DNA from: Candidatus Buchananbacteria bacterium
Lineage (GTDB): Bacteria > Patescibacteriota > Patescibacteriia > Buchananbacterales > UBA6539
Direction of reading: 5' to 3'
Length of the DNA stretch: 59,894 nt
NCBI GenBank assembly: GCA_041664165.1
Contig: JBAYLH010000007.1
Coordinates: 1 to 59,894 of the forward strand
Of this stretch, positions 27 to 30,513 are shown one piece after another. Every line of letters begins with the position of its first letter. The first letter of the stretch is position 1. The position numbers were made by a program, and so were the translations under genes. The notes beneath the pieces are model-generated. The model was not told where the DNA came from. It ran no database searches and was given only the letters and a program-made list of their open reading frames with translations.

Positions 27-3000
27 TTAATACTTTTCTATCACTTTGATCGAGGCAGCGGCCGATGGGATATTTTTCTTGTTCCAGTTATCTTGAACTT
101 CAATGACTGGTTTAACCAGGCAGTAGTTTTGATCCGCCGGACAATCCAAATTCGGACCACGATTCGGGGAATTAGAAGTCCGCTTTAACTGCCAATAATC
201 ATAAGTATGATAAATCGTAAACGGATTTTCCAAATTCGGCCGCTCGCGCAAAGAAACGCCGGAAACCGAAGTTTTTTCGCCGTCTTGCCAGTCAACCGAA
301 TAGGACTTCAAAGGCAGCTGGTTGGCATCAACTTTAACCGTAAAATCCAATTTAACGGCGCCAACACCGTTAATCACCGTACTTTTCTGGCCATTAACTA
401 GCGTACTAGGAATTGCCGGTTCAATCCAGCAAACGTCGCTGAAAACACCCATCGGATCGGGATTGCCGGCCGGACGCTTGTTCTCTCCACACCTAGGGAA
501 AGAACCGCAGTTGATTGGCGGATTGGCTAAACAGTCCCAAGTTAAGGCATTACTGTTACTCACTTCTTTATACCCGTCGCCAAAATGGTTGATATTGCAA
601 GTCGCGGTATTGGTATTAGCGCAAAGGCTTTTATCGGTAACCGTACAATTCGCTGAATTATCGCTGCAAAGACCGCCAGTGGCCGCCGTGAAATCCCAGC
701 CGGTGCCATAACTTTTCAGAAAAATCCGTTTTAAATAATTTATGTCGTGTAGTTCGCCCATCCTGGCCTGATACGGCGCGCCTAAAGACGGCTGGGGCGG
801 TTCATAGAAAAGCGGCTGGCGGTTATTGGTCGTCCGGCTGTCCCAGTCCGGCGGATTTTGCAGGCCGGCCGGTGGAACAATCGCGCCGAAAGGTTCGTAA
901 TCTGAAGATTGATAGGCAAAATCCGGACTGTCAATATTGCCGTTCACGGCTTGGGCGGCCGTCAGAAATTGATCATAATTAAACGGATCGTAATAAAGAT
1001 AATAATTCCGATAGCTAGCGCCGACTTTTTTGCTGTTGGGGTCAGGCAAGAGGTATTGAGAACCCGGCGCCACCCGCGTTGACCAGGCCTTATTATTGCC
1101 GGTCGCGTCAACCACCTGGACTACTTGCTTGCAATAATTAACATTAATATCGTTAGTTTTAAAATTACCGTAAACTCCCGGCGCTTGTTCGGAACCTTCC
1201 ACCAAATTAATTACCGCCACGCCGTAAATATCGTTAGGAATATCCGGCATCGGATCAACAAACTGGCCGGTAAACCGCGGGTCATTTTCCGTTACAATGG
1301 TAACGCCGGTCGCCATTCCGATTTTGGCGCTGAACTGAACTCCTGAACTTATTTGAAGCGCCGCGGCTATATTTTCCATATCGCCGCCAGCCGCAAAGCC
1401 AAGGAGTGCTGAACCGGCTTGAGTAAATAAATTTAGAAATAGAGCTTGTGATTGAAAAGTTTGCATATCATCAATATAGCTGGCTGAACTTATTTGCGTT
1501 GAATTGTAGAACTTAAAACTATTTATATTTAAAAGAAGAGCCGCAGATGGATCTCCGGGAGAACCACCTGCAAGATTACCTACTATATCTAATGCTGAAC
1601 CAATAAGTTGAGAAATTCCAGGGTCACCACCTAATGCCCCTATTAAACCGGTAATTGCCGACCAAGGAACTATGAAACTCAGGGTGGCCGGTAAAAAACC
1701 ATAAATCTCACTGCCTTGCGATTGTAAATTAAAAGTTACATCACAACCTTGTATATGATCAATATTAGGATCACAATTTCCCGTTGGACCAAACGGCGTG
1801 CTATCTACGGTCGGCGGTAAATTCAAAACCATTCCTAAACCTCGCATCGCGAAGGCGGGCAAGTTGTCCGGTTCAAATTTAAAGTGGCCCTTGATTTGCC
1901 GGACATACGGATAGCGGAAAAGCGGCCGGTAGTCTTCGTTGATTTGAAACGGCACCAGCTGAACCGATCGGCCCTGGTTGTCATTGCTGCCGGCGCTGTA
2001 GCTGGTATAAGTATTGAAAGTGGCCATCAGCTGAGTTGACGGGAAAGCCGGCATCTCGCCTTTTTGCACACAATAATAAAGCGGCGTCTGGATTTGGTAA
2101 GGCACGACTTCATCGGCCATTTCGCCTTTGATTTGGTCGATTGGCAGCCACTGGACGCACTGCTGGGGATTATTCGGATCAGCGGTCAGGCAATAGCCGT
2201 ATTGGCCGATATGATAAATATTTTTGGCGTCGATATATTCGCAGGCCAAAGAACTATATTCGGGGTAAACCCGGCAGCTGCGGGAGACAAAATCATTGGC
2301 CGCAAAATTCAAATCATTACTCGTAACATTTTTAACCTGCAAAACCGGTTTTAAAGAAATCTGGTCAAACAGGGAATAGCCGCTGATGCCGCACTTGGTA
2401 TCGTCTTTACCGTCCCGGCAAGTGGCAACGTCACTAGCATAATTACTCAAATAAAGCGTCATTTTTGAACCCTTATCGCCGGAATTAAAGTCATAAGTCA
2501 GCTTCTGCCATTTGTTGCCGCTGGGTAAAACCAAAGCTTTGGGGCAGCAAACTTTGCTTCCGCTGTTATAATAGTCTCCTTCTTTTCGGCAGCTACTTTC
2601 GATTTCTGGATAGTAACAGACTTGCCCCCGCAAATAAGTACCCGGCAAAGTTCCCATAGTGGGATCGTCATGTTTTAATTCTTCGGTATTAATCCAGGCG
2701 GTCAAAATATAGTCGGTATTTTTTTCCAAATCAATTTCGGAAGATTTTGCCTCATAAGACGTGTTTAATTTCAAGTATCGGCCTTCGAGCCGCTGTTTGG
2801 AATTGGTTTCCAAAGTATATTTGTAAGGCATCCAGCCGCGGCCGTCAGTCGTATGGTCTGAACTCTGATTGCTGTATTCGCTCCAGGCCAGCGGCTGATT
2901 AGTTTGGTTAAAAGCCAATTCAAAATCGCCGTTGGAAATATAAGCCGCATTGCCGTACTGGGTCATTTCCGCGTAGGGGAAATAGCCGTTGATAGTCCGG

Positions 3001-6000
3001 GCGCAAGTTGTGAACGAGCCGGTGCAATCATTTTTAGAGTTGCAGGCGGCGCCGTTATTCATGCCGTTAGCGCAAACGCCCTGGTTAAAGCTCAAGCCGG
3101 CCGTGGCATAACCGCTTAAATTTTTAATTTCCTCAACTGTGCTGAACGCCGACTTTCTTAAATCATTGCCGCTTGAATCTTTACCGGCCGCCGGAACAAA
3201 ATTAGTGCAAATGCCGCTCTCATCAGCCGCATTGCAAAGGCCGAGGCTGAGGCATTGCTTTTGTTCGCCTTCGCTGGTAACGGCCGTAACCGCGTAGCTG
3301 GTACAAGCCAGCCAAGCTTCGCATTCGCGATCCGGCGTTACTTTCAAGACGGCATTGGAATCGCAGCTGCCCGAACAATTCGCCACCGGCAAGCCGTTAT
3401 TAACGTTGATGCCGCTGGTGTCGGCGTCAAAGCCCAGGGAGCTGATGTCATCTTCGCCGATTTTGAAATTAACCTGGCTGCGGTCATTAAACAAAACACA
3501 GCCCCGCTCCGGATCAACGATGCCGTTGCAGCTGAATTCATCAACCGTGTTGCTTAAAGTATAATAAATGCCGGTTTTGAATAAATTGACTTGTTTGACT
3601 GAATCTTTAATGTTATCCAAATCGCTGCCTTTTAAGTCCAGTTTGCAAACTTGCTTTTTGGGCACCGTAAAGCGGACGGAATAGGTGGTTTCCGCTGGAA
3701 AATTGCTGATTTGGTCAATTGTCCGGCTGTCGGCCTGGTAATTTCTCGGCGGAATTTTAAACGATTTATTGTCGCTGGCGATTTCAATTGAATGGTCGAA
3801 GGAAACGGCGTTCGGGCAGTCTTTCATTTCAATCACTAACAGGCTGCCATCAAGTTTCTTTTTGGCAGTAAAACTCAAAGTATATAAAGTATTGGCTTCC
3901 AGCTGCAAACCTTCCTGCGTGTAATTATCAGCGCCTTTTACCCAGCCATCGGGGACACTATTATTATCACTATCCCGGCTTAAATCGCCGTTGAAGATTA
4001 AATTTTTGGCAATCGTGCTGACGGGATCAATAAACTGAGTGCAGGAATTGAATTCGCCCGGACATAAGCCCGTCCAGCCATTGCTCGGATGGACAGCACC
4101 GACCGGCGGCTGAACCAGCGGGCAATCCGGTATTGTCGAAGCTGAACCGGATTTGAACCAGGCCGAGCTCGCCTGGCCGGGGGCAACCCGGTATTCGCAG
4201 GTTTTGGCTCCCGGATCTTTGAAATAAGCCGTCCCGTTGCCGGTCCGAAATTCATCGCAGCCGAATTCCGAACTTTGGCAAAGAATTGAACTATATTTAT
4301 CCGGATCATTAATCAGATAAGCCGTCTGGTAGCCGACGACTTTGTCAGCCGTGCTGATTTGCGGCCAGCCCAAAGCCTGGCAGCCTTTGTTGGCCGCGGT
4401 GCATTGAAACTGCGGCCGGTTAACCAGATAAACCAATTTGTCAGCCGGCACGCTAACCGCCGAAATCGGATCGTTGGCATTAAATGGCACTTCCGGTTCA
4501 TAAGGCGAAGCGGAATTAAAAGTATCAATCAGCGCCTGGCAGCCGATTACTTCCTGGCGGCACAAATGGTCGAATGATTTTAAATTATGGGTTCGGCTGT
4601 AGGAATCCCGATACTGCTTGCAGCCGAGCATAAATTGCGGCGCGGCAATCGGACCGGACGAAAGCCACGGATTGGTGTCGCAGCTATTCGGCGTTTTCCA
4701 GGAATTTTTGATTTCATAAACATAATTTTGAACTTCTTTGATTTCAATATTATCCGCGTAGAAAGCCGGCGTCCCGCCATTTTCACCAGTTAAGCTTAAA
4801 GCTAAATCCGAAGGAATGGCATCGGGCATGGTAAACGGCCCGAAATTATAATAATTCCAGTCCGAACCGAGGTTGGTTGATTCTTGAATAATGGCGCTGC
4901 CGGCCGAACCGCTGGCGAGCTTAACTTTGATTGGAATAGTATTGGTGGTCGAGCCTTTGGCCCAAAAAGAAATCAAATAAGTCTTAATCGGTTTAATCAG
5001 CTGGCTCAAATCCGAGCAAGATGATTCGCCGACATTAATCAGGCAAACCTGGCCGCCGGCGGTATCATCGGAAACGCACTTGCCCAAAGTCCGATCGAAA
5101 CAATCTTTGGCGTTATTGCCGCTGCAGGCTGTTACGCTTTCCGTGCAATTGCCGCCAGACGATAATTTGCTGTAAGCGCTGGCAATAGTTTCCAAACCAG
5201 CCAGCTGCTGGCTTTTAATTGAGTGGCCGCCGACGGACAACGCTTCGCTGCTAATCGTGCCGCTCTTCCAACCGACCGTGTCGCCGGGTTCAAAATTATC
5301 GGCAAAAGCCGTAAAGACGTTGCCGCTGGCATTACCGCTGTATTCGCGGCAGCCGGCGACGTTATTAGAACAGGCCAAACCTTGGCTGGGAATTGCCTGG
5401 TAAACGCAAGTTTTACTGCTGCCGTCCCAGGTGCCATGGCTGGCAGTACAATTAGCCGTCGCTTCGGCATCGCCTTCGTTCAGCCGCGATTTGCGGAACG
5501 GATGGCAGTCATCTGAACAGGCGATGGTATTATTATAAATCCGATAATAAATATTGCCGTCAATGCCGTAAAATTCCTTGCAGAAAGGATTGGAAATTAT
5601 ATCTTCCGGCCCGTCGCAGCAAGCCGGCTGGCCGTTAGCGCCGGCCGCCGTATCAGCGCACCAGTAAGGCAGCCAGCTTGAAATATCCATGGCCGCTTGC
5701 GGCGAACCGGCCGCGGCGGCTAAATTATAGACTTTGAGCTGGTAGCCGGCTTCGTCGGAACCCTGCCAATTATAGAAATTCTGGCAGCTGACGCCCGGGT
5801 CATTCGGCTTTTCGCAAAGCCTCAGGTATTTATAATATTCCTTGCCTTCGCCGCCCTTGGCAACTTCGTCTAAATTGGTAAATTCATCGCAGCCGGCGCT
5901 GGCGGCATTGCATTGTTTTCCGGTGGCCGGAATGAAATAATTAATCGAAGCCTGGCTTTCAAAAAAAGTATTTGATTGTTTATAAGAATCATAGCCGACG

Positions 6001-9000
6001 CATTCCGCCGGGCAATAGTCTTCCAGTTTGACGACGCCCGGAATTGTGGTTCCGCCTTTTAGCGGGGTATAAGCTTCGCAGCCGACTTCGTCTTGCTGGC
6101 AATACAAAGCGTAATTGGCGCACTGGGGCGAATCAACTTCGTGGCAGCAAAAATTGCCGGCCGCATCGCAGCTGTCAGCGGCGCAGGTGCCAGAGCCGCA
6201 ATCGGAATTAGCGCTGCAGCCTTGGCCGGCTTTGTCACCGCCCTGGCAGAACTTCCGCCAGACCAAAGTGTCGCCAACGCACTGAGCTTTGGTAACGCCG
6301 TCTAAAACCGCGGGGTTTGGCCGATCCAAACTATAGCCTTTGCAATCCAGTGAAACCGGCGCTTTTTTCAGATAAGTTAGGTTAGCCGCGCCATAATCTT
6401 TGTAGCTGGTCGTTACCGGATTTTTAGTTTCAACTTCTTCGATTTGAACGCCGTCAAGATAAAGCGGCTTGGTATTATCGGTACTCAAATTAGCGATTGA
6501 GAGTTTAAAATTATCGCTGCTGATTCGGGTAGTAATCGGATTGGCGACAAATCTCTGCCATTGGTCGGTTAAATGCAAAAATGCCGAATTATTAATTTGA
6601 AGCGGCGAAAAATCAGCCAAGCATTTGCCCTGGTTTCGGCCGCCAGCCGGACAGCCGCTCACCCCGTCGGCGCAGGTGCATAAATCATTAGTTGGCTCGC
6701 AGCTTAAAGCCGGATTCAAACTGCAAAAATGATCCGGATTATGATCGGATAAAATTTCCAAATACCACAGGCCGTCTTCCGGTTTTATTTCTTTGGTCGT
6801 CGAATCGGTTTTGGCCCAAAAAGAAATCCGGTAAGTGGTGTTGGCTTTCAAACCGGTAACCGGCCCGGTATCAAAATCCCGCGGCCGGCCCAAATTATCA
6901 TTATTTATTTTCAAGCATAATTTACCCACCGGGCAATCATTTTGAATTTGTTCAATTGAAGCATTATCGCTCGCTTGATGGCTTTCTCCCCAAAACCAGC
7001 CTTTGGGCAAACTACTAGCATCCGGCCAGTCTTCAAAACTGGCATTGTCAATCAAATTCGTGCCGGCATTGGGCAAAGTCTGGATGAATTCGGAACAACC
7101 AGCTTCCTCGGCCGAACAAGAACCGGCATCGCGGTCTAAATATAATTTGCTTTCGTCGCGGTCAATCGTCCCGACCAAAGTTAAAACTGCCCGATTAGTG
7201 ATGCAGCTTTTGGAAATCCGGAAATTATCAAACCAAACCACACCACTGACTTGTTTAACGCCGTCGCCGACTTCAATTCCGACCTTCACTTTGCCTTTGC
7301 CGTTGCCGGCGGCCGTAACCTTAAAATCAAAACTGATTTGCTGCCAGCCATTTTCTTTATTGACCATTTTTTCCCCTAGCACGCTGCTAGCCAAAGCATC
7401 GGTAACTTTTAAAGTAACATCGCCTTGGTTTAAATAATCATAAACTTGACTTGAAAAAGTATAATCGCCGGCCGGCAATTCCAATTCGGCCGAAGTCGCC
7501 GATTCGTCAATAACCGAACCGTAGTTGAAAAATCTCAAGCTCGCCTGGCCGCCATCGGCATAAATTCTTTCCGCCCCGCCGGCAACCTGGCTGAAATATT
7601 CCCGGTTGCCTTGCCACTTCAAAGAAAGCTGGCCGGTTGCCGGTGCCACGGCCGTTTCAAAACTCGGATTAGGCAACAAATTATCCAGGCTACTGCAGCT
7701 GTCGATAGCGCAAGAAACTCCGTTTTGCTTGATGGTGCAGCCGGTATTGACCACGCATTTGCTGCCGCTGGCCACCCAGAATTTTGAGCCGGAACTGCAT
7801 TTGTCGCTGATAGTCAAATTAACCTGCGAATTGGCGTCAAGACAGAAATTCAAGCCGTTGGGAATATCGCAGCTCGCCGTTACCGGACAGCCGCCTTTCT
7901 GGGTGCAGGGTTTGAGAACTTTTTTACCCTCATTAACGCAAGTCCAAATATTGTCAACCGGATTATAAGTCTGGCAATACCATTTGCAGCCGGCGTTATT
8001 GATGCTGCAGCCGTTGTAATTCAAAGAATTGGCCAAATAGCTGGCCACTGAGCCGCTGCTGCTTTGAAAAGTCTGACAGGTGTTATAATTAGCGCTGCAA
8101 TCTTTTCCGGCTAAATCCCAAACTCTTTTTTCTTCGCTGCAATAGCCGTAATTGCGGCAAGTGCCGTCGTTATTCCGGCTGATACAAGACTGGAAATCCG
8201 CGCAATATTCGGCGCGGCCGATATCGAGACTGGCCGCTTCGTCAGCCGAGCTGCCGGTTTCGGCTTGATAGATAATTTTCGGCCCGAAGCCCTGATTTTT
8301 ACAGATGACTTCCGGCAATTTTAAAACCCAATCCGGATCAATCAAGCCGTGATAAATACTCGCCGCATCGTTAGGGTCATTAAATTTTGAAACTAAATAA
8401 TTAAGGGTAATAATTTTACCGGGATCAAGCAGATGACCGGCTTCGGCCGCTAATTCCCAGCCAACCGGCACAATCCGGTAACTCCTCATAATCACGATAT
8501 TCCGATAAGACAGCTCCAAATTTTTCGCCGTCGGATCAAAATTCCAGGCTCCGAACGGCGCTTCACCGTCAATTAACCCGGCCTTCAGCGCATCCTTTAA
8601 AGTCATTTTTCTTTCGATGATATCGCGAAAAGCCGGCGAAATCACGCATTCTTCCGATCCCGGATTTTTGGGATCAGGACAAAAACTCAATTTGCTTAAT
8701 AAATCATAATCGCTGCTCGGCTTAACGCCGGCTTCCAAAAAATCCAAAAACCGCCGTTCGGCCGCCTTCTTGCCGCCGTATAAAGACACTCCGGTGTCGC
8801 CGGTATATAAATCCTGACTGCCGCCAGGACCCGGCCGAGGCAATAAACCCGCCAAAGCCCGGGCCAAATCTTCAATATAATTTTCATCATTGCCGGCATT
8901 GCTGGCCAAACCCTGCCTAAACCATTTGTCAAAAAGTTTGGACATTAAAGTATTGGCAAAAGTCGCAATCGCATAACCAAAAATATCGCCGAAAGGAACG

Positions 9001-9959
9001 TCCTCGGCCGCCTTGGTGCCTTTGCTGAGCGCCTGGTAAGACGCTTCGGAAACCAAAGACGATGGCGTCAAAATCGAATCAGCAATTTTTTGGCCGACCG
9101 ACTTCCAGCCTTGGCCTTCCTGCCGGCCCAAAATCCCGGCTAATTCATCTTTGGCTTTGGTCTGATAATAAAAATCAAACATCGAAAAAGCAATGCCGAT
9201 GTCATTAGCTGACGGCTCAAAAATACCGGTGAATTTATTCAAAAAATTCGGATCCTTGGCAAAACTTTGCCAATTCTTTACTAGCTGGGTTACGGTGCAT
9301 TTCGGCGGTTTCGGCCGACCCAGTTCGCTGATTCCCAAACTGATTCTGATTTTAATCGGACTGGCCGGTTCGCAAACATTATAATGCAGCCAGCTGCCGC
9401 TCAAACTTTCCAAAAATTTACCGCCGGCGGCATCGGCCAAATCCTTTAAATAAGCGCCCCAGCCCTTGGTATAAAACATCGGCTTTTGGCCTTCATCGCC
9501 GGTCGCCAGCCAAGTGGCCGTATCATAAGCAAAGGTATTAAGCATGTGGCTGACTGCGGTTTTGGCCGCCGCGTAAACGGAGTCTTTCAAGCTTTCCCAG
9601 CCCCAGTCCCTGACTTTAAAGAAATTACCCCACCAATCCTGCAAGCGCTGAATAAAAGTCAGATTTTTATTGGTGGTTTTGGTATCTTTATCAACTGCAT
9701 TGATAGTATCTTTTTGATTACCAGTTACTTCATCAAATTGGGGCTTGGTTACTTCGACTTCAATTGCGCTGGGCGACGCTGCCGCTTTGACCGGCAGCGG
9801 ATATAAAGCCGCTGGCATTACCGAAACTAAAACCATTTGAACCGTAATAATGATGGAAGCGGTTTTTTTAAAGCCGGAAAACCAAGGCCGACTCACCCGA
9901 TTTTTCAGCTGGGTTTGACCGTCTCCTGGCTTGGCAGATTTATTTGAAAAGTAATTCAT
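27..9959 (-). CDS. Giant (3310 aa) secreted/surface protein, Cys-rich, with several CBM4/9-like (galactose-binding fold) domains
   Basis: Single long ORF; N-terminal hydrophobic segment (ASIIITVQMVLVSVMPAALY); recurring domain starts NLLPNPSFET, NLIDNASFED, NLIFNGDLS, YISNGDFE; about ten C-x4/5-(G/S/T)C-xx-(F/Y/L) modules. Confidence 0.8.
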   Translation of the reverse strand: MNYFSNKSAKPGDGQTQLKNRVSRPWFSGFKKTASIIITVQMVLVSVMPAALYPLPVKAAASPSAIEVEVTKPQFDEVTGNQKDTINAVDKDTKTTNKNLTFIQRLQDWWGNFFKVRDWGWESLKDSVYAAAKTAVSHMLNTFAYDTATWLATGDEGQKPMFYTKGWGAYLKDLADAAGGKFLESLSGSWLHYNVCEPASPIKIRISLGISELGRPKPPKCTVTQLVKNWQSFAKDPNFLNKFTGIFEPSANDIGIAFSMFDFYYQTKAKDELAGILGRQEGQGWKSVGQKIADSILTPSSLVSEASYQALSKGTKAAEDVPFGDIFGYAIATFANTLMSKLFDKWFRQGLASNAGNDENYIEDLARALAGLLPRPGPGGSQDLYTGDTGVSLYGGKKAAERRFLDFLEAGVKPSSDYDLLSKLSFCPDPKNPGSEECVISPAFRDIIERKMTLKDALKAGLIDGEAPFGAWNFDPTAKNLELSYRNIVIMRSYRIVPVGWELAAEAGHLLDPGKIITLNYLVSKFNDPNDAASIYHGLIDPDWVLKLPEVICKNQGFGPKIIYQAETGSSADEAASLDIGRAEYCADFQSCISRNNDGTCRNYGYCSEEKRVWDLAGKDCSANYNTCQTFQSSSGSVASYLANSLNYNGCSINNAGCKWYCQTYNPVDNIWTCVNEGKKVLKPCTQKGGCPVTASCDIPNGLNFCLDANSQVNLTISDKCSSGSKFWVASGSKCVVNTGCTIKQNGVSCAIDSCSSLDNLLPNPSFETAVAPATGQLSLKWQGNREYFSQVAGGAERIYADGGQASLRFFNYGSVIDESATSAELELPAGDYTFSSQVYDYLNQGDVTLKVTDALASSVLGEKMVNKENGWQQISFDFKVTAAGNGKGKVKVGIEVGDGVKQVSGVVWFDNFRISKSCITNRAVLTLVGTIDRDESKLYLDRDAGSCSAEEAGCSEFIQTLPNAGTNLIDNASFEDWPDASSLPKGWFWGESHQASDNASIEQIQNDCPVGKLCLKINNDNLGRPRDFDTGPVTGLKANTTYRISFWAKTDSTTKEIKPEDGLWYLEILSDHNPDHFCSLNPALSCEPTNDLCTCADGVSGCPAGGRNQGKCLADFSPLQINNSAFLHLTDQWQRFVANPITTRISSDNFKLSIANLSTDNTKPLYLDGVQIEEVETKNPVTTSYKDYGAANLTYLKKAPVSLDCKGYSLDRPNPAVLDGVTKAQCVGDTLVWRKFCQGGDKAGQGCSANSDCGSGTCAADSCDAAGNFCCHEVDSPQCANYALYCQQDEVGCEAYTPLKGGTTIPGVVKLEDYCPAECVGYDSYKQSNTFFESQASINYFIPATGKQCNAASAGCDEFTNLDEVAKGGEGKEYYKYLRLCEKPNDPGVSCQNFYNWQGSDEAGYQLKVYNLAAAAGSPQAAMDISSWLPYWCADTAAGANGQPACCDGPEDIISNPFCKEFYGIDGNIYYRIYNNTIACSDDCHPFRKSRLNEGDAEATANCTASHGTWDGSSKTCVYQAIPSQGLACSNNVAGCREYSGNASGNVFTAFADNFEPGDTVGWKSGTISSEALSVGGHSIKSQQLAGLETIASAYSKLSSGGNCTESVTACSGNNAKDCFDRTLGKCVSDDTAGGQVCLINVGESSCSDLSQLIKPIKTYLISFWAKGSTTNTIPIKVKLASGSAGSAIIQESTNLGSDWNYYNFGPFTMPDAIPSDLALSLTGENGGTPAFYADNIEIKEVQNYVYEIKNSWKTPNSCDTNPWLSSGPIAAPQFMLGCKQYRDSYSRTHNLKSFDHLCRQEVIGCQALIDTFNSASPYEPEVPFNANDPISAVSVPADKLVYLVNRPQFQCTAANKGCQALGWPQISTADKVVGYQTAYLINDPDKYSSILCQSSEFGCDEFRTGNGTAYFKDPGAKTCEYRVAPGQASSAWFKSGSASTIPDCPLVQPPVGAVHPSNGWTGLCPGEFNSCTQFIDPVSTIAKNLIFNGDLSRDSDNNSVPDGWVKGADNYTQEGLQLEANTLYTLSFTAKKKLDGSLLVIEMKDCPNAVSFDHSIEIASDNKSFKIPPRNYQADSRTIDQISNFPAETTYSVRFTVPKKQVCKLDLKGSDLDNIKDSVKQVNLFKTGIYYTLSNTVDEFSCNGIVDPERGCVLFNDRSQVNFKIGEDDISSLGFDADTSGINVNNGLPVANCSGSCDSNAVLKVTPDRECEAWLACTSYAVTAVTSEGEQKQCLSLGLCNAADESGICTNFVPAAGKDSSGNDLRKSAFSTVEEIKNLSGYATAGLSFNQGVCANGMNNGAACNSKNDCTGSFTTCARTINGYFPYAEMTQYGNAAYISNGDFELAFNQTNQPLAWSEYSNQSSDHTTDGRGWMPYKYTLETNSKQRLEGRYLKLNTSYEAKSSEIDLEKNTDYILTAWINTEELKHDDPTMGTLPGTYLRGQVCYYPEIESSCRKEGDYYNSGSKVCCPKALVLPSGNKWQKLTYDFNSGDKGSKMTLYLSNYASDVATCRDGKDDTKCGISGYSLFDQISLKPVLQVKNVTSNDLNFAANDFVSRSCRVYPEYSSLACEYIDAKNIYHIGQYGYCLTADPNNPQQCVQWLPIDQIKGEMADEVVPYQIQTPLYYCVQKGEMPAFPSTQLMATFNTYTSYSAGSNDNQGRSVQLVPFQINEDYRPLFRYPYVRQIKGHFKFEPDNLPAFAMRGLGMVLNLPPTVDSTPFGPTGNCDPNIDHIQGCDVTFNLQSQGSEIYGFLPATLSFIVPWSAITGLIGALGGDPGISQLIGSALDIVGNLAGGSPGDPSAALLLNINSFKFYNSTQISSASYIDDMQTFQSQALFLNLFTQAGSALLGFAAGGDMENIAAALQISSGVQFSAKIGMATGVTIVTENDPRFTGQFVDPMPDIPNDIYGVAVINLVEGSEQAPGVYGNFKTNDINVNYCKQVVQVVDATGNNKAWSTRVAPGSQYLLPDPNSKKVGASYRNYYLYYDPFNYDQFLTAAQAVNGNIDSPDFAYQSSDYEPFGAIVPPAGLQNPPDWDSRTTNNRQPLFYEPPQPSLGAPYQARMGELHDINYLKRIFLKSYGTGWDFTAATGGLCSDNSANCTVTDKSLCANTNTATCNINHFGDGYKEVSNSNALTWDCLANPPINCGSFPRCGENKRPAGNPDPMGVFSDVCWIEPAIPSTLVNGQKSTVINGVGAVKLDFTVKVDANQLPLKSYSVDWQDGEKTSVSGVSLRERPNLENPFTIYHTYDYWQLKRTSNSPNRGPNLDCPADQNYCLVKPVIEVQDNWNKKNIPSAAASIKVIEKY

Positions 9960-13369: not shown

Positions 13370-14401
13370 TCAGCCTCTTATCTGCTTCACGAATTTATAA
13401 ATTGAAAAAATTACCGGGTTAGTAACCAAATCAAAGCTGCCGACGTATTCTTTGGGCGCCGTTGACTGGGAAAAACTGGTTTTAAACCGCGTAATCCCTT
13501 GCCACTTGGCATTGTTGTAAGTTTGGCCGTTAACGCCGCCGAAATCATAAAAAGAACAGCCCTGCTTTTTTGCCGCGCTAATTGCTTCCCATTGCAAAAG
13601 GTACGGTGCCATGACTTCGCGGTATAAATCCGAAGAAGCGCCATGAAGATAAGTGCAATATTTGCCGAAAAAAGACACGATGTTAGCGGCAATTACTTTG
13701 TTGTCATATTCGGCAATAAATAATTTAACCAAATTTTCCGCCGCCAAAACCTCGAACATTTTTTTATAGTGTTCTTTGGTGTGGGGCTGAAAGCCATCGC
13801 GGCTTGAAGTCTGTTTGATTAATTGCCAAAAACTTTCAATGTCGGAAATTTCCGTGCTAATTCTAATATTAACTTTGTGCCGCTGAGCTAAGCCGATATT
13901 GTACCGGGTTTTCGGTTTCATGTCGACCAACAATTGATCCTCACTTTTGGCTAAATCGATAATGGCATTGCACTTCGGCTGAATTTCATATTCGCCTTTT
14001 CGGAAGCCAACGTCAGTTAAGCGCTTTTCATGACCCAAAATCCAGGGCGGGTCAACCCGGATTAAAAAACTTTTTTCCTCCCGGGCGATTTTTTTAATTT
14101 CGGCAAACAGCGAATCCAAATCATCAATTTTCAAAACATTAATTACCGGCCCGCGCGGACAGTAAAGATAATTATATTCAAAAGGCAAATCGTGTTTAAT
14201 TAACAAAGCCGCAGCCTGGAGCTGGCCTTCGTCGTCAATAACCCCGAGCCGGATGATATGATTATCCAAGGCTTTTTGAAAATCGCCCCAAAGCCAAGAC
14301 TGCAGCAGACCGCCGTCAGTGGCGTTGGTTTTAATGAAGCTATCCCAATGCTGTTTTAATTCATCGCCAACTTGGACTATCTGCATAAAACTAAATGACA
14401 A
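13370..14401 (-). CDS. FemAB/FemX-family peptidoglycan bridge aminoacyltransferase
   Basis: LLQSWLWGDF, YLYCPRGP, KTRYNIGLA, YLHGAS, YDFGG and GITRFKTSF motifs. Confidence 0.9.
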   Translation of the reverse strand: MSFSFMQIVQVGDELKQHWDSFIKTNATDGGLLQSWLWGDFQKALDNHIIRLGVIDDEGQLQAAALLIKHDLPFEYNYLYCPRGPVINVLKIDDLDSLFAEIKKIAREEKSFLIRVDPPWILGHEKRLTDVGFRKGEYEIQPKCNAIIDLAKSEDQLLVDMKPKTRYNIGLAQRHKVNIRISTEISDIESFWQLIKQTSSRDGFQPHTKEHYKKMFEVLAAENLVKLFIAEYDNKVIAANIVSFFGKYCTYLHGASSDLYREVMAPYLLQWEAISAAKKQGCSFYDFGGVNGQTYNNAKWQGITRFKTSFSQSTAPKEYVGSFDLVTNPVIFSIYKFVKQIRG

Positions 14402-20245: not shown

Positions 20246-21349
20246 TTAATGATTAAGCAAAAAATCAAAACTGCCGGAAATCATGGCATGGGCGTTCCTA
20301 ATTGCCCGGTCGCCAACTTGGCCGGCATATCGGCTGGTTATAATATCATTACCCACGGCAACCCAAGCGGCCTGGCTGCCGCCGATTCCCGCCAAAATAT
20401 CAGTTTGAAGCTGGGTAAAACCATTGAGCCCGGCTTGGCCTAAATTAAAAGCCATATCCGTCAAGACCACCTGCCGGGCTTCGGAAATTCGGCCCAAAGC
20501 ATCCCAATTCGCCTGGCCGCCGACATAATTAATTGCTGTTTGATTGGCAGCGACTAGCCTTGATTGATACAAAGCTTCGGCCTGTTGCGGCGACAGTACC
20601 GTGTTAGCATTTAAAGTGACGGTTTCGGAAGTACCGTTGGCATAAGTCAAAGTAACCTGGTCGCCCGGCGTAAACCGGCACCCGGCGCCAATCGTCCAAT
20701 TGCCGAGGTTATCCTGATAAGCGCCCAAAGAAAAATTGCCAGATCCTTCATTATTTAAAATATAAGAATAAGCATCGCCGGCATAACCGCCGGGTAAATT
20801 ATATTGCCCCGGATTGGGATAATAATCATAATCACCGATACCGGTATAACCGGGCGTAAAAATCGGACCGGTCACGCCGGGCAATTTCGCCACTTGAATC
20901 TGTTTGATTTTAATCCCCTGCAAATTAATTAATGAGGGATTAATGGTCGCTAAAATCATAAACGCAAAAAAGGCCAAAAGCAAGCCGCTCAAAGCGCTGG
21001 CGATAAATTCTTTGGCCGTGCCGACTTTATCCGGACTGCCGGCTGACATCAGCCAAACCAAGCCGCCGGCCATAATCATCACAATAGCCAAAGTCGCCGC
21101 CAAACCGATGCCGTATTTATACAAAGCCGAAATGTAATCGCCGATCCAAGGAATACAATAATTACCGCCGCAAGGCTCAATCGGTCCGAATTTAATCGGC
21201 GTATTGCCCAGCTGAAACTGAATTTTCGGTTCGCTAACCGCCCCGGAAGAATTGGGAATGGTAACGGTGTTTGAATCCGCTTTTAAACCAACGGGCAATA
21301 ATAAAAAAACTAAAAAAAATGAGAAAATAATAATCCTGAAATATTTCAT
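20246..21349 (-). CDS. VirB2/TrbC-like pilin fused to a T4-type (GH24) lysozyme domain
   Basis: Pilin segment YISALYKYGIGLAATLAIVMIMAGGLVWLMSAGSPDKVGTAKEFI; C-terminus ILNNEG...AYQDNLGNWTIGAG and RQVVLTDMAFNLGQAGLNGF...SRYAGQVGDRAIR parallel T4 lysozyme motifs. Confidence 0.85.
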   Translation of the reverse strand: MKYFRIIIFSFFLVFLLLPVGLKADSNTVTIPNSSGAVSEPKIQFQLGNTPIKFGPIEPCGGNYCIPWIGDYISALYKYGIGLAATLAIVMIMAGGLVWLMSAGSPDKVGTAKEFIASALSGLLLAFFAFMILATINPSLINLQGIKIKQIQVAKLPGVTGPIFTPGYTGIGDYDYYPNPGQYNLPGGYAGDAYSYILNNEGSGNFSLGAYQDNLGNWTIGAGCRFTPGDQVTLTYANGTSETVTLNANTVLSPQQAEALYQSRLVAANQTAINYVGGQANWDALGRISEARQVVLTDMAFNLGQAGLNGFTQLQTDILAGIGGSQAAWVAVGNDIITSRYAGQVGDRAIRNAHAMISGSFDFLLNH

Positions 21350-21526: not shown

Positions 21527-22396
21527 CTAACGCGGCCACTCCGGTACCCAGGTCCAATTAGCCCCGGCAGCTTCAACGTGAAAATGCCGCCCGGTTCCTC
21601 CCGGTTCATCCACGAAAATCGTACCGTCTCGCATTCTATATGCCCTGCCCCACGTAAGCTGAGTAAAATTTGACCCATCGGGATTTTTGATAGCATTGGT
21701 TGTTACATAGTTATAACAAGGAGCCGTCATACTCGCATCCCAGACATAACCCGAACCATGGCGGTTCTCACCGGCTCGATAGCCATCAGTCGAAGTGCAG
21801 CCTTGGTCTTGATAGAGTTGCCGCCTTTGATTTGCTTCGTCTGTTAGCTGAGTAAAATTGCCGCGAGCCGTGCCGCCGCCGGCTCCTGTCCCGGCTCCGA
21901 TTGCCGCAAATTCCGCTGAACCGCCCGAACCAAACCCGGGCGATATCACGCCCGGCAACTTCGCGACGGCGATTTGCTTTATCCTAATGGCTTCCAAGTT
22001 GGTCAGTTTCGGATTTATCGCCGTTAGCACCATAATGGCAAATAAGGCCAAAAACAATCCGCTCAAGGCGCTAGTGATAAACTCTTTGGCTTTACCGACT
22101 TTATCCGGACTGCCGGCCGACATCAGCCAAACTAACCCGCCGACCATAATCATCACAATGGCTAAAGCGGCGGCGAAACCGACGCCGTAGTTATATAAAG
22201 CGGAAATATACTGGCCAAGCCAAGGAATTGAACACTCGGAACCGGCGGTGCAACTGACCGTTTGAAAATCAATTTTAGTTGAGCCGATTATAACCTGCAT
22301 TTTAGGCGGCGTGGTCTCACCAGCGGCCAAAACTAAAACCGGCAGAAAAATTGTCAAAATTAAACTGGCTAATAAAATTTTATTTCTCTTTTTCAT
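21527..22396 (-). CDS. VirB2/TrbC-like pilin fused to a putative M15-like Zn peptidase domain
   Basis: Same pilin segment; C-terminal GYR...RHGSGYVWD and HFHVE match the H-x(3-6)-D / HxH pattern of M15/LAS peptidases. Confidence 0.75.
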   Translation of the reverse strand: MKKRNKILLASLILTIFLPVLVLAAGETTPPKMQVIIGSTKIDFQTVSCTAGSECSIPWLGQYISALYNYGVGFAAALAIVMIMVGGLVWLMSAGSPDKVGKAKEFITSALSGLFLALFAIMVLTAINPKLTNLEAIRIKQIAVAKLPGVISPGFGSGGSAEFAAIGAGTGAGGGTARGNFTQLTDEANQRRQLYQDQGCTSTDGYRAGENRHGSGYVWDASMTAPCYNYVTTNAIKNPDGSNFTQLTWGRAYRMRDGTIFVDEPGGTGRHFHVEAAGANWTWVPEWPR

Positions 22397-22508: not shown

Positions 22509-23387
22509 TCACATTGAAATATTCAACCTATTTGATTGCATCATATTTTCTATATATGACAACCCGGATGACATATCCATATTATTCAAATTCTGAGCCA
22601 TATCCCTAAATAGTTGGGGGATAGGAAAAATCAAATTACCCGGTGAATACCAGTGATTAGCAAGATTTGCTTGATTTGAAGCATCAACCCAGGGTATGCC
22701 ATCATTTATCGTTCGCGCATCAATTCCCCCATAATAGTATTGCCACCGGCCATCGTAAAATCTTAAATTTAACACACTTGTTGCCGACATTCCGACACGA
22801 TTTATTTCCGGCGGCGTTTCGACATGGATAAATCTACCATTATCAAAATCAGTCGCAGAAATACGCGCATTTAGGCCATTAGTGATTCCTTCAAGCCGCG
22901 GATTTACCCCGGTAACGGTAATTCCTTTTAAATTAACCAAATTGGGATTAATCGTGGTTAAAATCATCACCGCAAAAAGCGCCAAAAGCAAACCGCTCAA
23001 AGCGCTGGCGATAAATTCTTTCGCTTTGCCGACTTTGTCCGGACTGCCGGCTGATAATAGCCAGACTAAGCCGCCGACCATAATCATCACAATAGCTAAG
23101 GCGGCGGCCAAACCGATGCCGTAGTTATATAAAACGGAAATATACTGGCCGATCCAGCTAATTTGCAAGCACTGAACGCCGTTGGCCGTGCCGTTGGGAC
23201 AATAATTCGAACCACTTTGCCAGCCGGCGTTTTCGCCCGTCCAGCCGCTAAAGCCGCCGAGATGAATTTGAACTGTCGGCACAATCGGATCAGCCGCCAA
23301 GGTCAGGTTGGCGCCAAAAATAAAAATGAAAAAAAATAGCAAAAATTTTCCCGGGAGGCTCAAATTAAAATTTATTTTTTTAGCCAC
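22509..23387 (-). CDS. VirB2/TrbC-like pilin with unrecognised C-terminal domain
   Basis: Same pilin segment (YISVLYNYGIGLAAALAIVMIMVGGLVWLLSAGSPDKVGKAKEF); AT-richer unrelated C-terminus; GTG start 3 nt after the dsbA stop. Confidence 0.75.
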   Translation of the reverse strand: MAKKINFNLSLPGKFLLFFFIFIFGANLTLAADPIVPTVQIHLGGFSGWTGENAGWQSGSNYCPNGTANGVQCLQISWIGQYISVLYNYGIGLAAALAIVMIMVGGLVWLLSAGSPDKVGKAKEFIASALSGLLLALFAVMILTTINPNLVNLKGITVTGVNPRLEGITNGLNARISATDFDNGRFIHVETPPEINRVGMSATSVLNLRFYDGRWQYYYGGIDARTINDGIPWVDASNQANLANHWYSPGNLIFPIPQLFRDMAQNLNNMDMSSGLSYIENMMQSNRLNISM

Positions 23388-23390
23388 AAA

Positions 23391-24146
23391 TTATTGGTTT
23401 AGATAAGAAGTAATCATCTGCTCAAAAACGTTAAAAGGAACCGCGCCGGAAAGCTTGAGTCCGTTGATAAAAAAAGTGGGCGTGGCGGTAACGCCTAAAT
23501 CGGCGCCAGCTTGTAAATCCTCTTCGATTTTTTTGAGATATTTGCCTTCGGCGATGCAGGTATCAAACAGCGGCATATTCAAACCAGTCTGCAGGGCATA
23601 GGTTCTCAAGTCCGGAGTTAATAATTTAGTCTGATTATCAAAAATTTTATCATACATCGGCCAAAATCCGCCTTGTTCATTGGCGCAAGCCCCGGCCATC
23701 GCCGCCATTAAGGCTTGGGGATGATTATCAACTAAGGGGAAATTGCGAAAGACAAAAAGAATCCGGTCGCCATAATCTTTTAAAAGCTTTTTAACCACGG
23801 GGTAGGCTTCTTCGCAAGCCGGACACTGAAAATCGGCAAATTCAACAATTACCACTTTAGCGTCTTTTTTGCCGAACTTGGGGTCGTCAACTCCAAAAAA
23901 GCTGGAAAAATCTTTCGGCTGGGCTGAATTGACATTGCCGAAAACCTGTTTTGGGCTGACTTCACCGCTTTTGACCAAAGTTACAACTCTGGCGGCATAA
24001 AAAATCAAAGCCGACAAAATCATCAAAAAAACCGCCGAGAAAGCCAAAATTATCCGGCCCCACCATTTCTGATACCATTTTTTTTTGGTTTTTCCGGTTT
24101 TTTGTTGGCTGGGCGGCAGATTAAAATAATCGTTTGAACTAGGCAT
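23391..24146 (-). CDS. Membrane-anchored DsbA-family thiol-disulfide oxidoreductase
   Basis: EFADFQCPAC active site, RNFPL, GVTATPTFFING (cis-Pro loop); N-terminal TM. Confidence 0.93.
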   Translation of the reverse strand: MPSSNDYFNLPPSQQKTGKTKKKWYQKWWGRIILAFSAVFLMILSALIFYAARVVTLVKSGEVSPKQVFGNVNSAQPKDFSSFFGVDDPKFGKKDAKVVIVEFADFQCPACEEAYPVVKKLLKDYGDRILFVFRNFPLVDNHPQALMAAMAGACANEQGGFWPMYDKIFDNQTKLLTPDLRTYALQTGLNMPLFDTCIAEGKYLKKIEEDLQAGADLGVTATPTFFINGLKLSGAVPFNVFEQMITSYLNQ

Positions 24147-26755: not shown

Positions 26756-26840
26756 GGGCGAGTGGCGAAACTTGGTAGACGCGCTAGCTTCAGGAGCTAG
26801 TTCCCGCAAGGGATTGGAGGTTCAAATCCTCTCTCGCCCA
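26756..26840 (+). tRNA. tRNA-Leu (anticodon CAG), CCA not encoded
   Basis: Acceptor GGGCGAG/CTCGCCC, anticodon arm CTAGC-TTCAGGA-GCTAG, long variable arm CCC-GCAA-GGG, T-arm GGAGG-TTCAAAT-CCTCT. Confidence 0.96.
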
Positions 26841-29265: not shown

Positions 29266-30513
29266 ATGAAAAAACTTTTACTCTGTTTGCCGCTTTTATT
29301 AACCTTGCTTGTTTCCGGCTGTCAAGCACCACCGATTGCCCAACCTAATGTTAACGACAACGGTGCTAATTTGGATTCAATTGGTAAAACCATTAAAGGT
29401 AATGATGAATTCGGCTTGAATTTATATACTAAATACAAGACCAAAGACGGCAATATTTTCTTTTCACCCTATAGCATCTCTTCGGCTTTGGCGATGACTT
29501 ACGAAGGCGCCAAAGGCCAAACCGCCGCTGAAATGCAGAAAGTTTTCGGCTTTTTAGCCGACCCGACCGATCGCCGGTCTTCTTTTGCTAAAATCTACAA
29601 CGATTTGAACGCAAAAAATGAAGATTACCAGCTTAACACAGCCAACGCTTTATGGGTGCAAAAAGATTTTCCATTTTTAGCTGATTATCTTAACCTGGTT
29701 GAAAAATATTACGGTGGCAAAGCAACCAATTTGGATTTTATAAATCAAACCGAACAGTCCCGACAGACAATTAACCAATGGGTGGAAAAAAAGACTAATA
29801 ACAAGATTCAAAACCTCCTGCCCCAAGGCAGTGTTTCTGGTGACACCAGGCTGATTTTAACCAATGCCGTTTATTTCAAAGGAACCTGGCTTTTCCCGTT
29901 TGAAAAAAGCAGCACTCAAAAAAAAGATTTTCAGCTAACACCAACCAATACCGTTACTGTCGATATGATGCAACTATACGGCAAAAAATTTAAGTATAGC
30001 GAGACTAATAAACTCCAAGCCTTAGAAATACCATACAAGGGTGATAAAATTTCCATGCTAATTCTATTGCCAAAAAATAACGATTTGGCGTATCTGGAAA
30101 ATAACCTCAACTTGAAAAATTTAAATGAGTGGAAAACCAGCATGAACTCAGAAAAAGTCACAGTTTTTTTACCTAAATATAAATTTGATACAAAATATGA
30201 TATGGCCCAAGATTTAACTCAATTAGGCATGCCAACCGCTTTCAATTGTTCACTCGCTGATTTCTCCGGCATGACCGGCAAAACTGACTTATGTATTGAC
30301 CAGGTCATTCATAAAGCCTTTATTGAAGTTGATGAACAGGGAACTGAAGCCGCGGCGGCTACGGCGGTTATCATGAAGACTAGCATGGCTGGTCCGACTC
30401 AACCAGAAAAAATCTACTTTTTTAATGCTGATCATCCATTTATCTTCTTAATTCAAGACAAACAAAGCGGCAATATCTTATTTTTAGGCCGAGTCAGCGA
30501 CCCGACCAAATAA
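29266..30513 (+). CDS. Serpin-family protease inhibitor, probable lipoprotein
   Basis: NIFFSPYSISSALAMTYEGAKGQT, hinge EQGTEAAAATAV, FNADHPFIFLI; lipobox LLVSGC. Confidence 0.95.
   Translation: MKKLLLCLPLLLTLLVSGCQAPPIAQPNVNDNGANLDSIGKTIKGNDEFGLNLYTKYKTKDGNIFFSPYSISSALAMTYEGAKGQTAAEMQKVFGFLADPTDRRSSFAKIYNDLNAKNEDYQLNTANALWVQKDFPFLADYLNLVEKYYGGKATNLDFINQTEQSRQTINQWVEKKTNNKIQNLLPQGSVSGDTRLILTNAVYFKGTWLFPFEKSSTQKKDFQLTPTNTVTVDMMQLYGKKFKYSETNKLQALEIPYKGDKISMLILLPKNNDLAYLENNLNLKNLNEWKTSMNSEKVTVFLPKYKFDTKYDMAQDLTQLGMPTAFNCSLADFSGMTGKTDLCIDQVIHKAFIEVDEQGTEAAAATAVIMKTSMAGPTQPEKIYFFNADHPFIFLIQDKQSGNILFLGRVSDPTK

Follow-up and report, generated by a model that had tools for sequence, protein, structure and literature searches.

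The gene at positions 21527-22396 on the minus strand of a 59,894-nt stretch of DNA from Candidatus Buchananbacteria (contig JBAYLH010000007.1; the whole stretch is referred to here as the window) encodes a protein in which a VirB2-like pilin module is fused to a minimal C-terminal domain homologous to the zinc peptidases of the MT3/VldE group. The protein is probably an extracytoplasmic zinc endopeptidase, either tethered in the membrane or carried by a pilus, that acts on the stem peptides of peptidoglycan beside sister fusions that bear glycosidases.

The C-terminal domain and its relation to MT3/VldE

An earlier note on this DNA had described the open reading frame (ORF) as a pilin fused to a minimal M15/LAS-type zinc peptidase. 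Translation of the exact coordinates gave the motif strings R207, HGSGYVWD and HFHVE, with a Gly/Ala-rich linker on their N-terminal side; the ORF and its motifs are thus confirmed as first described. The identical 289-amino acid call, with neighbours that are also identical, is found in three independent metagenome assemblies, and the sequencing runs that bear the sequence are groundwater metagenomes of DNA.

The C-terminal domain of ~100 amino acids belongs to a small family. Word-indexed homologue searches made with the domain and with the family alignment returned nothing, while an exhaustive HMMER scan of 1.84 billion representatives gave 14 matches, comprising the cluster of the window protein itself, 11 real relatives and two spurious repeat proteins. 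The latter (P0006 and P0009) are long and repetitive, with scores summed over the repeats, and were discarded. All 11 relatives have a T4SS_pilin-like N-terminus and a linker, followed by the same C-terminal domain with 30-48% identity to that of the window protein. Since only 12 clusters were found and all are fusions, the domain family is rare and attachment to the pilin is its fixed architecture. We note that the public annotation of one member (P0011, NCBI MFA6322609.1) is 'pilin' only, leaving its enzyme-type C-terminal domain unannotated.

Thirteen columns are invariant in the alignment of the 12 members: G26, R34, R39, H40, D47, Y80, D84, G85, V89, E91, H98, H100 and E102 (domain numbering, to which 173 is added to give that of the full protein). 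They take in all five residues of the proposed LAS motif, i.e. R207, H213, D220, H271 and H273. The set recognised at the outset (an upstream Arg, H-x(3-6)-D and a downstream HxH) is therefore present and invariant in the 12 clusters, except that the spacing between His and Asp is x6 in 10 of them and x12, through a 6-residue insert, in the other two. E275 is invariant and specific to the pilin-fusion family, and E264, D257 and R212 are likewise invariant family residues. C200 and C227 probably form a disulfide bond within the domain; both columns are occupied by Cys in five of the 12 members, and another five have no Cys at all. The Trp-rich tail that follows HxHxE is kept as WxW..P.R in most members and is absent from VldE/MT3. 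A lysostaphin-type (M23) identity was rejected on account of the spacing, which is H-x6-D and not H-x3-D. A phmmer comparison of the whole protein with PDB sequences returned only the exosome subunit CSL4, which is low-complexity noise.

The crystallised relative is VldE (Spr1875) of Streptococcus pneumoniae, an L,D-endopeptidase whose MT3 domain comprises residues 266-380 and which cleaves the L-Ala-D-iGlx bond in the acceptor strand of cross-linked stem peptides (PMC11667670). Its crystal structure is a LAS fold (MEROPS clan MD) in which the active site resembles that of M15 enzymes, and 1LBU, 6AKV and 2MXZ are named as structural homologues (PMC11667670). H301, D308 and H375 hold the catalytic ion Zn-1, and R294 stabilises the transition state. 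Replacement by alanine of any one of H301, D308, H375, H370, D372 or H373 abolishes activity (PMC11667670). VldE has in addition a non-catalytic multi-zinc state, and it has no carboxypeptidase activity on synthetic substrates (PMC11667670).

The relationship to this group was found by several comparisons. Against PDB sequences the family profile matched 9flh, the C-terminal domain of VldE, at E 0.004; this sequence belongs to the Streptococcus LysM proteins labelled PF26571 and ends NHYDHVHVS. Alignment of the family with VldE-like sequences by hhalign had a probability of 92.1% (E 6.2e-7, 100 columns). The family hidden Markov model (HMM) alone found the MT3 motif within the 1229-amino acid tape measure protein of TM4, at residues 799-884 and in the correct register. 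The target set was widened by collecting 80 phage MT3 domains with the TM4 MT3 seed (a scan of viral contigs seeded with the narrow VldE alignment gave one locus only), and 28 non-redundant MT3/VldE sequences were used, 24 of them phage MT3 representatives. Against these the hhalign probability was 94%, with E 1.3e-7 in local and 2.5e-8 in global mode over 100-106 columns. Negative controls, comprising the reversed alignment and 20 column-shuffled versions, reached probabilities of at most 1.0 and scores of at most 16, compared with 46 for the real alignment. In a joint MAFFT alignment of both families, which are ~20% identical, the only invariant columns are one Gly together with R, H, D, H and H, such that R294, H301, D308, H373 and H375 of VldE are in register with R207, H213, D220, H271 and H273 of the window protein.

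Models were made by AlphaFold2 (AF2). For the window domain, with a multiple sequence alignment of the 12 members, the predicted local distance difference test score (pLDDT) is 82.6 and the predicted template modelling score 0.79, with pLDDT below 50 at domain residues 112-116, the extreme C-terminal end. A model of the VldE-like domain (pLDDT 89.9) was matched by Foldseek to PDB 9flm, 9flk, 9fln, 9flh and 9flj at template modelling scores of 0.85-0.94 (0.91-0.93 for 9flm), and its next match was the M15B LD-carboxypeptidase LdcB (E 0.015, probability 0.92). The order of secondary structure elements in the window-domain model (H-E-E-H-E-E-E-E) parallels that of the VldE-like model. The elements common to VldE (PDB 9FLH/J/K/L/M/N, PF26571) and the window domain are, in order, a helix, GYR-x-G, the H-x6-D strand, a helix, the W..Y strand and the HxH strand. 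Both domains are small (~100-115 amino acids), and both would lie outside the cytoplasm on a long linker to a wall- or membrane-targeting module. D297, the residue of VldE that fixes the Arg, has in our reading of the joint alignment a conservative counterpart in E210.

The two families also differ. The zinc-zipper loop of VldE (residues 360-372) is replaced in the window protein by a shorter VDEPGGTG loop, and the window family adds the invariant residues E264, E275, D257 and R212 together with the Trp-rich tail. VldE is carried by a LysM-type wall-binding module and the window domain by a VirB2-like pilin hairpin, and the lineage is Patescibacteria as opposed to Firmicutes, Actinobacteria or their phages. 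In TM4 and its actinophage relatives, which the window family profile matches in register, the MT3 domain is part of a tape measure protein, over 1000 amino acids long, that is delivered at infection; the window domain instead forms the C-terminal head of a membrane protein of the cell.

A number of observations weigh against the assignment as an active MT3/VldE-like enzyme. None of the Pfam, NCBIfam or PHROG models recognises the domain; the Pfam copy that was scanned lacks PF26571, so that the VldE-like sequences themselves were unmatched by it and their PF26571 label is a precomputed annotation. The window-domain model had no significant Foldseek match in PDB (best E 0.86) or BFVD (best E 0.1), and VldE was not matched by it although present in the library searched. 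Consequently the fold, and the convergence of the two His and the Asp on one site, are not directly confirmed; the earlier note had proposed an AlphaFold check of this convergence, and the outcome was not a clean pass, the order of elements agreeing with the VldE-like model while the Foldseek match is lacking. The structural case for a LAS fold rests on homology to crystallised VldE. H370 and D372 of the extended HxDHxH motif, both essential in VldE, and also E368 and the zinc-zipper loop, have no counterpart in the shorter loop of the window protein, and the specificity residues K350, Y351 and R363 of VldE are not kept in the pilin-fusion family. In the S-x-x-R motif the Arg (R207) is invariant, while the Ser position, whose side chain orients the Arg in such enzymes and which is occupied by Ser in nine of the 12 relatives, is Asp in the window protein. 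An hhalign comparison with an alignment of VanY-type (Ply500) sequences from phage contigs returned the local HxxGxAxD motif only, with a probability of 0.4. No RNA runs with the sequence were found, only DNA metagenomes of groundwater.

The lack of a significant Foldseek neighbour in PDB or BFVD, and of any curated family model that matches the domain, would be expected if R, H-x6-D and HxH had come together by coincidence in an unrelated new fold that has no LAS active site. We regard this as very improbable, given a profile-profile score far above that of the shuffled controls, a full-length and colinear alignment with the five catalytic residues in register, and the same order of secondary structure as in the VldE-like model.

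The relation to M15 proper bears on a second alternative, in which the protein is a D-Ala-D-Ala-directed M15 enzyme, i.e. a dipeptidase or carboxypeptidase like VanX, VanY or LdcB that trims the termini of stem peptides and is not an endopeptidase. Pfam VanY aligns colinearly with one family member, from its SxxR through to HWH (E 1.2e-3, 19.1 bits, below the cut-off of 25). This is the only Pfam signal in the family; the M15 families Peptidase_M15, VanY and M15_2/3/4 gave no match with the window protein at E up to 10. The H-x6-D spacing is of the M15 type, and LdcB is the nearest structure other than VldE to the VldE-like model. The domain shares with the strict M15 enzymes (VanY/LdcB, VanX, Ply500, EndoT5 and the Streptomyces albus DD-carboxypeptidase) the H-x6-D with downstream His ligands, the Arg of SxxR and, by prediction, peptidoglycan peptides as substrate. 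It differs from them in having no long insert between Arg and His, such as VanX and VanY have, and in its HxH in place of the E/D-x-x-H of VanX, VanY and EndoT5. Moreover the profile-profile link to MT3/VldE (probability 94%) is far above that to the VanY-type Ply500 subfamily, and VldE itself had no carboxypeptidase activity on synthetic substrates. A terminus-trimming enzyme is thus improbable. The VldE family compared with the Ply500 alignment likewise returned only the local HxxGxAxD motif. Because the comparison with Ply500 gave a local motif only, no direct sequence bridge to M15 proper is demonstrated, and the bridge is the crystal structure of VldE. The first description as an M15/LAS-type peptidase therefore stands for the LAS type, by homology to MT3/VldE with five residues aligned, while membership of the Pfam M15 families is not borne out by score. 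The comparisons support the view that this is a divergent, minimal MT3/VldE-like domain of clan MD.

A third alternative is a pseudo-enzyme, in which the LAS scaffold, perhaps with its metal, would serve as a peptidoglycan- or metal-binding head (e.g. an adhesin or zinc reservoir) with no hydrolysis. This would fit the missing counterparts of H370 and D372 (their alanine variants being inactive) in a shortened loop, the non-catalytic multi-zinc state of VldE itself, and the failure of Foldseek to recognise the window-domain model as any peptidase. Yet sequences that are 30-48% identical retain without exception the three metal ligands, the oxyanion Arg and the leading His of HxH, a strictness typically seen in active enzymes; a base could come from E264, E275 or D257, acidic residues that are also invariant; and the sister genes bear domains of catalytic type with their motifs intact. 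We consider it unlikely that the domain is a binding module.

If the domain is a zinc endopeptidase as we propose, by homology one Zn2+ ion would be bound by H213, D220 and H273. R207 would polarise the scissile carbonyl group and stabilise the tetrahedral intermediate, and H271, the first His of HxH, would activate the water molecule, perhaps with assistance from E264 or E275, both invariant in the family. An amide bond of the peptidoglycan stem peptide is the most likely substrate, and our best guess is L-Ala-D-iGlx, the bond cleaved by VldE, EndoT5 and Ply500. The proposed general base and specificity residues of VldE are not conserved, so this bond specificity is not transferred with confidence. 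As a putative natural LAS peptidase of ~100 residues that has no regulatory zinc-zipper loop, the domain may be informative as to what the MT3 core needs for catalysis.

The pilin module and the predicted topology

The N-terminal part of the protein is recognised as a pilin module. Its score for the Pfam family T4SS_pilin, named for the type IV secretion system (T4SS), is 27.7 bits, just above the gathering cut-off, which is 26.6 (PF18895, E 2.9e-6, model positions 5-71 of 71). Hydropathy analysis gives windows at residues 4-30, corresponding to the signal peptide, 64-97 and 105-132, with the charged loop SAGSPDKVGKAKEF between the last two. The pilin fusion of the earlier note thus holds in each part, i.e. 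the pilin match above the Pfam cut-off, the signal peptide and the two hydrophobic helices. The positions of these elements, and those of the genes discussed below, are collected in Table 1.

Table 1. Positions in the window of the fusion gene, its component parts and the adjoining genes and repeats.
Feature	Position	Strand	Basis or description
Pilin-peptidase fusion gene	21527..22396	minus	289 aa, ATG start
Signal peptide, residues 1-25, MKKRNKILLASLILTIFLPVLVLAA	22322..22396	minus	Sequence and hydropathy; predicted cleavage site
Cys pair C49/C55 (CTAGSEC), predicted extracytoplasmic N-terminal stretch ahead of the first transmembrane helix	22232..22252	minus	Sequence reading
VirB2-like T4SS_pilin module, residues 60-127, two hydrophobic helices and SAGSPDKVGKAKEF loop	22016..22219	minus	PF18895
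Linker, residues 128-177, second half Gly/Ala-rich	21866..22015	minus	Direct sequence reading
Minimal MT3/VldE-like (LAS, clan MD) zinc-peptidase-type domain, residues 178-278	21563..21865	minus	hhalign, family HMM, AF2 model
R207	21776-21778	minus	Invariant in family and joint alignment; corresponds to VldE R294
Probable disulfide C200 (21797-21799) to C227 (21716-21718) within the enzyme domain	21716..21799	minus	Cys co-occurrence
H213-x6-D220 (HGSGYVWD)	21737-21760	minus	Corresponds to VldE zinc ligands H301 and D308
H271-F-H273-V-E275 (HFHVE, HxHxE)	21572-21586	minus	H273 corresponds to VldE ligand H375, H271 to essential H373
Trp-rich C-terminal tail ANWTWVPEWPR after HxHxE	21530..21562	minus	Alignments
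Downstream paralogue, pilin module and GH24 (T4-lysozyme-like) domain	20246..21349	minus	Pfam and PDB
Upstream paralogue, pilin module and C-terminal domain without detectable relatives	22509..23387	minus	
DsbA-like thiol-disulfide oxidoreductase, directly upstream of the array	23391..24146	minus	Pfam Thioredoxin_4/DSBA
283-nt direct repeat, three copies	20872-21154, 21946-22228, 22880-23162		Pilin modules of the three paralogues, 75-78% identity

A protein of this kind would be secreted and embedded in the membrane. Following cleavage of the signal peptide, the VirB2/TrbC-like hairpin of two transmembrane helices would span the membrane, and the flexible Gly-rich linker would hold the enzyme domain, ~100 residues in length and probably stabilised by its disulfide, on the outer side. 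As the predicted signal peptide is cleaved and the chain then makes two membrane passes, we infer that the C-terminal domain lies outside the cytoplasm. The co-occurring Cys pairs and the adjacent DsbA-like gene agree with this extracytoplasmic location. Each of the three paralogues of the window has Cys in the stretch that precedes the first transmembrane helix, where C55 forms an invariant column.

A tandem array with a shared pilin module

The fusion gene is the central member of three tandem paralogues on the minus strand, with a common N-terminal module and wholly different C-terminal parts. The C-terminal domain of the downstream paralogue matches Pfam Phage_lysozyme with 22.9 bits against a cut-off of 22.3, and aligns with T4 lysozyme in PDB over residues 14-161 at E 6e-8. 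This supports the suggestion, made when the gene was first described, that a peptide-cutting enzyme here complements a neighbouring muramidase; partners resembling 3D and glucosaminidase domains are found in other loci, and a joint action of glycan- and peptide-cutting heads in the array is what we infer from them. The ~140 C-terminal residues of the upstream paralogue (…RFIHVETPPEINRV…WQYYYGGIDART…) have no match in Pfam, NCBIfam or PDB sequences, and may represent another head of this platform that has yet to be described.

The arrangement is conserved in other genomes. A scan of species-representative genomes and metagenome contigs gave nine loci; as two contigs were each represented twice, the number of distinct loci is seven. 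Among them are metagenome-assembled genomes that bear the labels 'Patescibacteria group bacterium' and 'Candidatus Buchananbacteria'. Where the flanks are long, in five loci, the gene order is uniform, comprising SBP_bac_5 (on the opposite strand), the DsbA-like gene, an array of two or three pilin fusions and UvrA, followed in four of the five by leucyl-tRNA synthetase (LeuRS) or its start; the remaining two of the seven end at a contig boundary. The MT3-like fusion is the constant array member across the loci. In the syntenic arrays its partner heads are 3D domains (E 4e-6 and 1e-5), a weak match to glucosaminidase (E 3.6e-3), and Cys-rich and unknown domains. Two of the loci, L006 and L008 (CAZINP010000004.1 and CAZHUO010000001.1), lie in species-representative metagenome-assembled genomes titled 'uncultured Gammaproteobacteria bacterium' and have the synteny of the Patescibacteria type (SBP, DsbA-like, pilin array and UvrA, with LeuRS in L006); the Gammaproteobacteria label is probably wrong or generic.

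The DsbA-like gene lies directly upstream of the array in L006, L007, L008, L133 and L135 as well as in the window. Cys pairs or N-terminal extensions rich in Cys are frequent among members of the arrays (e.g. CCKCES and ICECNY). This suggests that the DsbA-like protein is a dedicated disulfide-forming partner of the array.

The pilin modules of the three paralogues in the window form a 283-nt direct repeat, with that of the fusion gene inside the second copy, and are 76-83% identical in amino acid sequence. Across the loci examined the modules within one genome are 64-99% identical, compared with 51-74% between the modules of orthologous MT3-like genes of different genomes. Since identity within a genome exceeds that between orthologues, the carrier appears to be homogenised or co-selected within each array, which suggests that the module undergoes concerted evolution or gene conversion. 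In locus L133 two neighbouring modules are 99% identical in protein and 97% in DNA, suggesting a very recent conversion event. There the longest ORF of the next paralogue (5288-6133) starts 25 nt before the stop of the MT3-like gene (4143-5312). A homogenised module with heads that are orthologous across genomes is, as judged from these comparisons, the pattern of a shared carrier with exchangeable heads.

Possible roles of the array and other features of the window

We propose that, within a chromosomal set of two or three sisters built on the same pilin module, the window protein is the one that cuts peptides. The sister heads would cut the glycan, by a GH24 lysozyme in the window and by 3D or glucosaminidase-like domains in the relatives, so that together they might form a murein-opening toolkit, membrane-tethered or pilus-carried. 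The wall that is opened could be that of the organism itself or that of a host.

Tandem arrays of pilins related to VirB2 are common in Patescibacteria and one is essential, and most VirB2-bearing Patescibacteria have no VirB1 (PMC12102498). The array in the window resembles those described in having two or three tandem PF18895 genes that are chromosomal, with a Sec signal and two helices (PMC12102498). It differs from them in that each member has an additional C-terminal enzyme or unknown domain of 130-240 residues, in that it is not adjacent to virB4, and in the 76-83% identity of its modules, compared with an average pilin identity of 25% within the Patescibacteria VirB2 arrays (PMC12102498). 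Hydrolases associated with T4SS, such as VirB1, PrgK, TrsG and CD419, provide a parallel, in that they too combine the cutting of glycan and of peptide to serve an apparatus that spans the envelope. Those are separate proteins, soluble or with a single anchor, with SLT, CHAP or M23 domains, whereas the heads in the window are fused to a pilin-like module and divided over paralogues.

It is possible, if somewhat doubtful, that the fusion is an offensive enzyme displayed on a pilus. The pilin modules would polymerise into a T4SS-type filament or surface complex whose heads open the wall of a host, serving attachment or the uptake of nutrients or DNA and not the remodelling of the organism's own wall. 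VirB2-like arrays occur widely among the Patescibacteria, and Ca. Southlakia requires one such array for epibiotic growth. The homogenisation of modules within a genome and the 283-nt triple repeat are expected if the modules co-assemble or share one partner, and a long flexible linker is well suited to the display of an enzyme head. Against this, none of the 32 ORFs of at least 120 amino acids scanned in the window (including all of those longer than 200) matched a T4SS component. Neither the 60-kb window nor the sequence flanking the syntenic loci yielded VirB4, VirB6 or another T4SS gene, although one may lie at a distant locus of the genome, and the array lies amid dsbA-like, uvrA and leuS genes. 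A 160-residue C-terminal extension on each subunit fits poorly with what is generally known of the packing of VirB2 filaments, and there is no known host. As no genes for T4SS machinery were found among the scanned ORFs, a pilus role of the N-terminal module is unproven, a point that counts against our preferred explanation as well.

A broader and still more speculative proposal, which we put forward tentatively and consider rather unlikely, is that the VirB2 pilin array acts in this Patescibacteria clade as a modular platform for breaching the wall of a host, in which a constant, co-assembling pilin module, evolving in concert, is combined with interchangeable heads that degrade peptidoglycan, supplying the 'missing VirB1'. 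The array would then be something other than a collection of antigenically varied pilus subunits. Carrying its heads (MT3-type peptidase, GH24, 3D, glucosaminidase and unknown), it would assemble as a filament or membrane complex studded with enzymes, by which the host bacterium's wall is broken through.

The type of catalytic domain and the pilin module are each known, while the subfamily is new and rare and its locus is conserved. The architecture of a pilin fused to a hydrolase appears to be undescribed; we found no mention of such fusions in Patescibacteria in PMC12102498 or in the other literature searched, the coverage of which is incomplete. Patescibacteria make up a large share of bacterial diversity and live mostly attached to other microbes, yet little is understood of the ways in which they cross or remodel cell walls. 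The members of VirB2-like arrays have so far been regarded as small structural pilins. In the locus described here the pilin module stays constant and the putative wall-cutting domains vary, which gives a concrete and testable function for some of these arrays and a possible answer to the question of why most Patescibacteria that encode VirB2 lack VirB1.

The surroundings of the array are chromosomal. The window contains housekeeping genes for UvrA, LeuRS, a FemAB-family protein, a KsgA-type methylase and RNase J, and others for a TrpRS/TyrRS-type synthetase, serine hydroxymethyltransferase and purine synthesis. The FemAB-family gene (13370-14401, minus strand) is downstream of the LeuRS gene, with an 11-nt overlap of the two ORFs. 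Its presence implies that the stem peptides of the organism's own peptidoglycan are branched or bridged, which bears on the possible substrate of the peptidase. A scan of the array for promoters and terminators gave nothing informative. The sole RNA gene identified in the window by ARAGORN and Rfam is that of tRNA-Leu(CAG), at 26756-26840 on the plus strand.

Two further genes may be mentioned. A giant ORF of 3310 amino acids (27-9959, minus strand), whose only Pfam signal is a CBM_4_9 carbohydrate-binding domain, probably encodes a large surface protein. A full-length serpin is encoded at 29266-30513 on the plus strand (Pfam Serpin, E 2.5e-124), in what is a small-genome groundwater bacterium.

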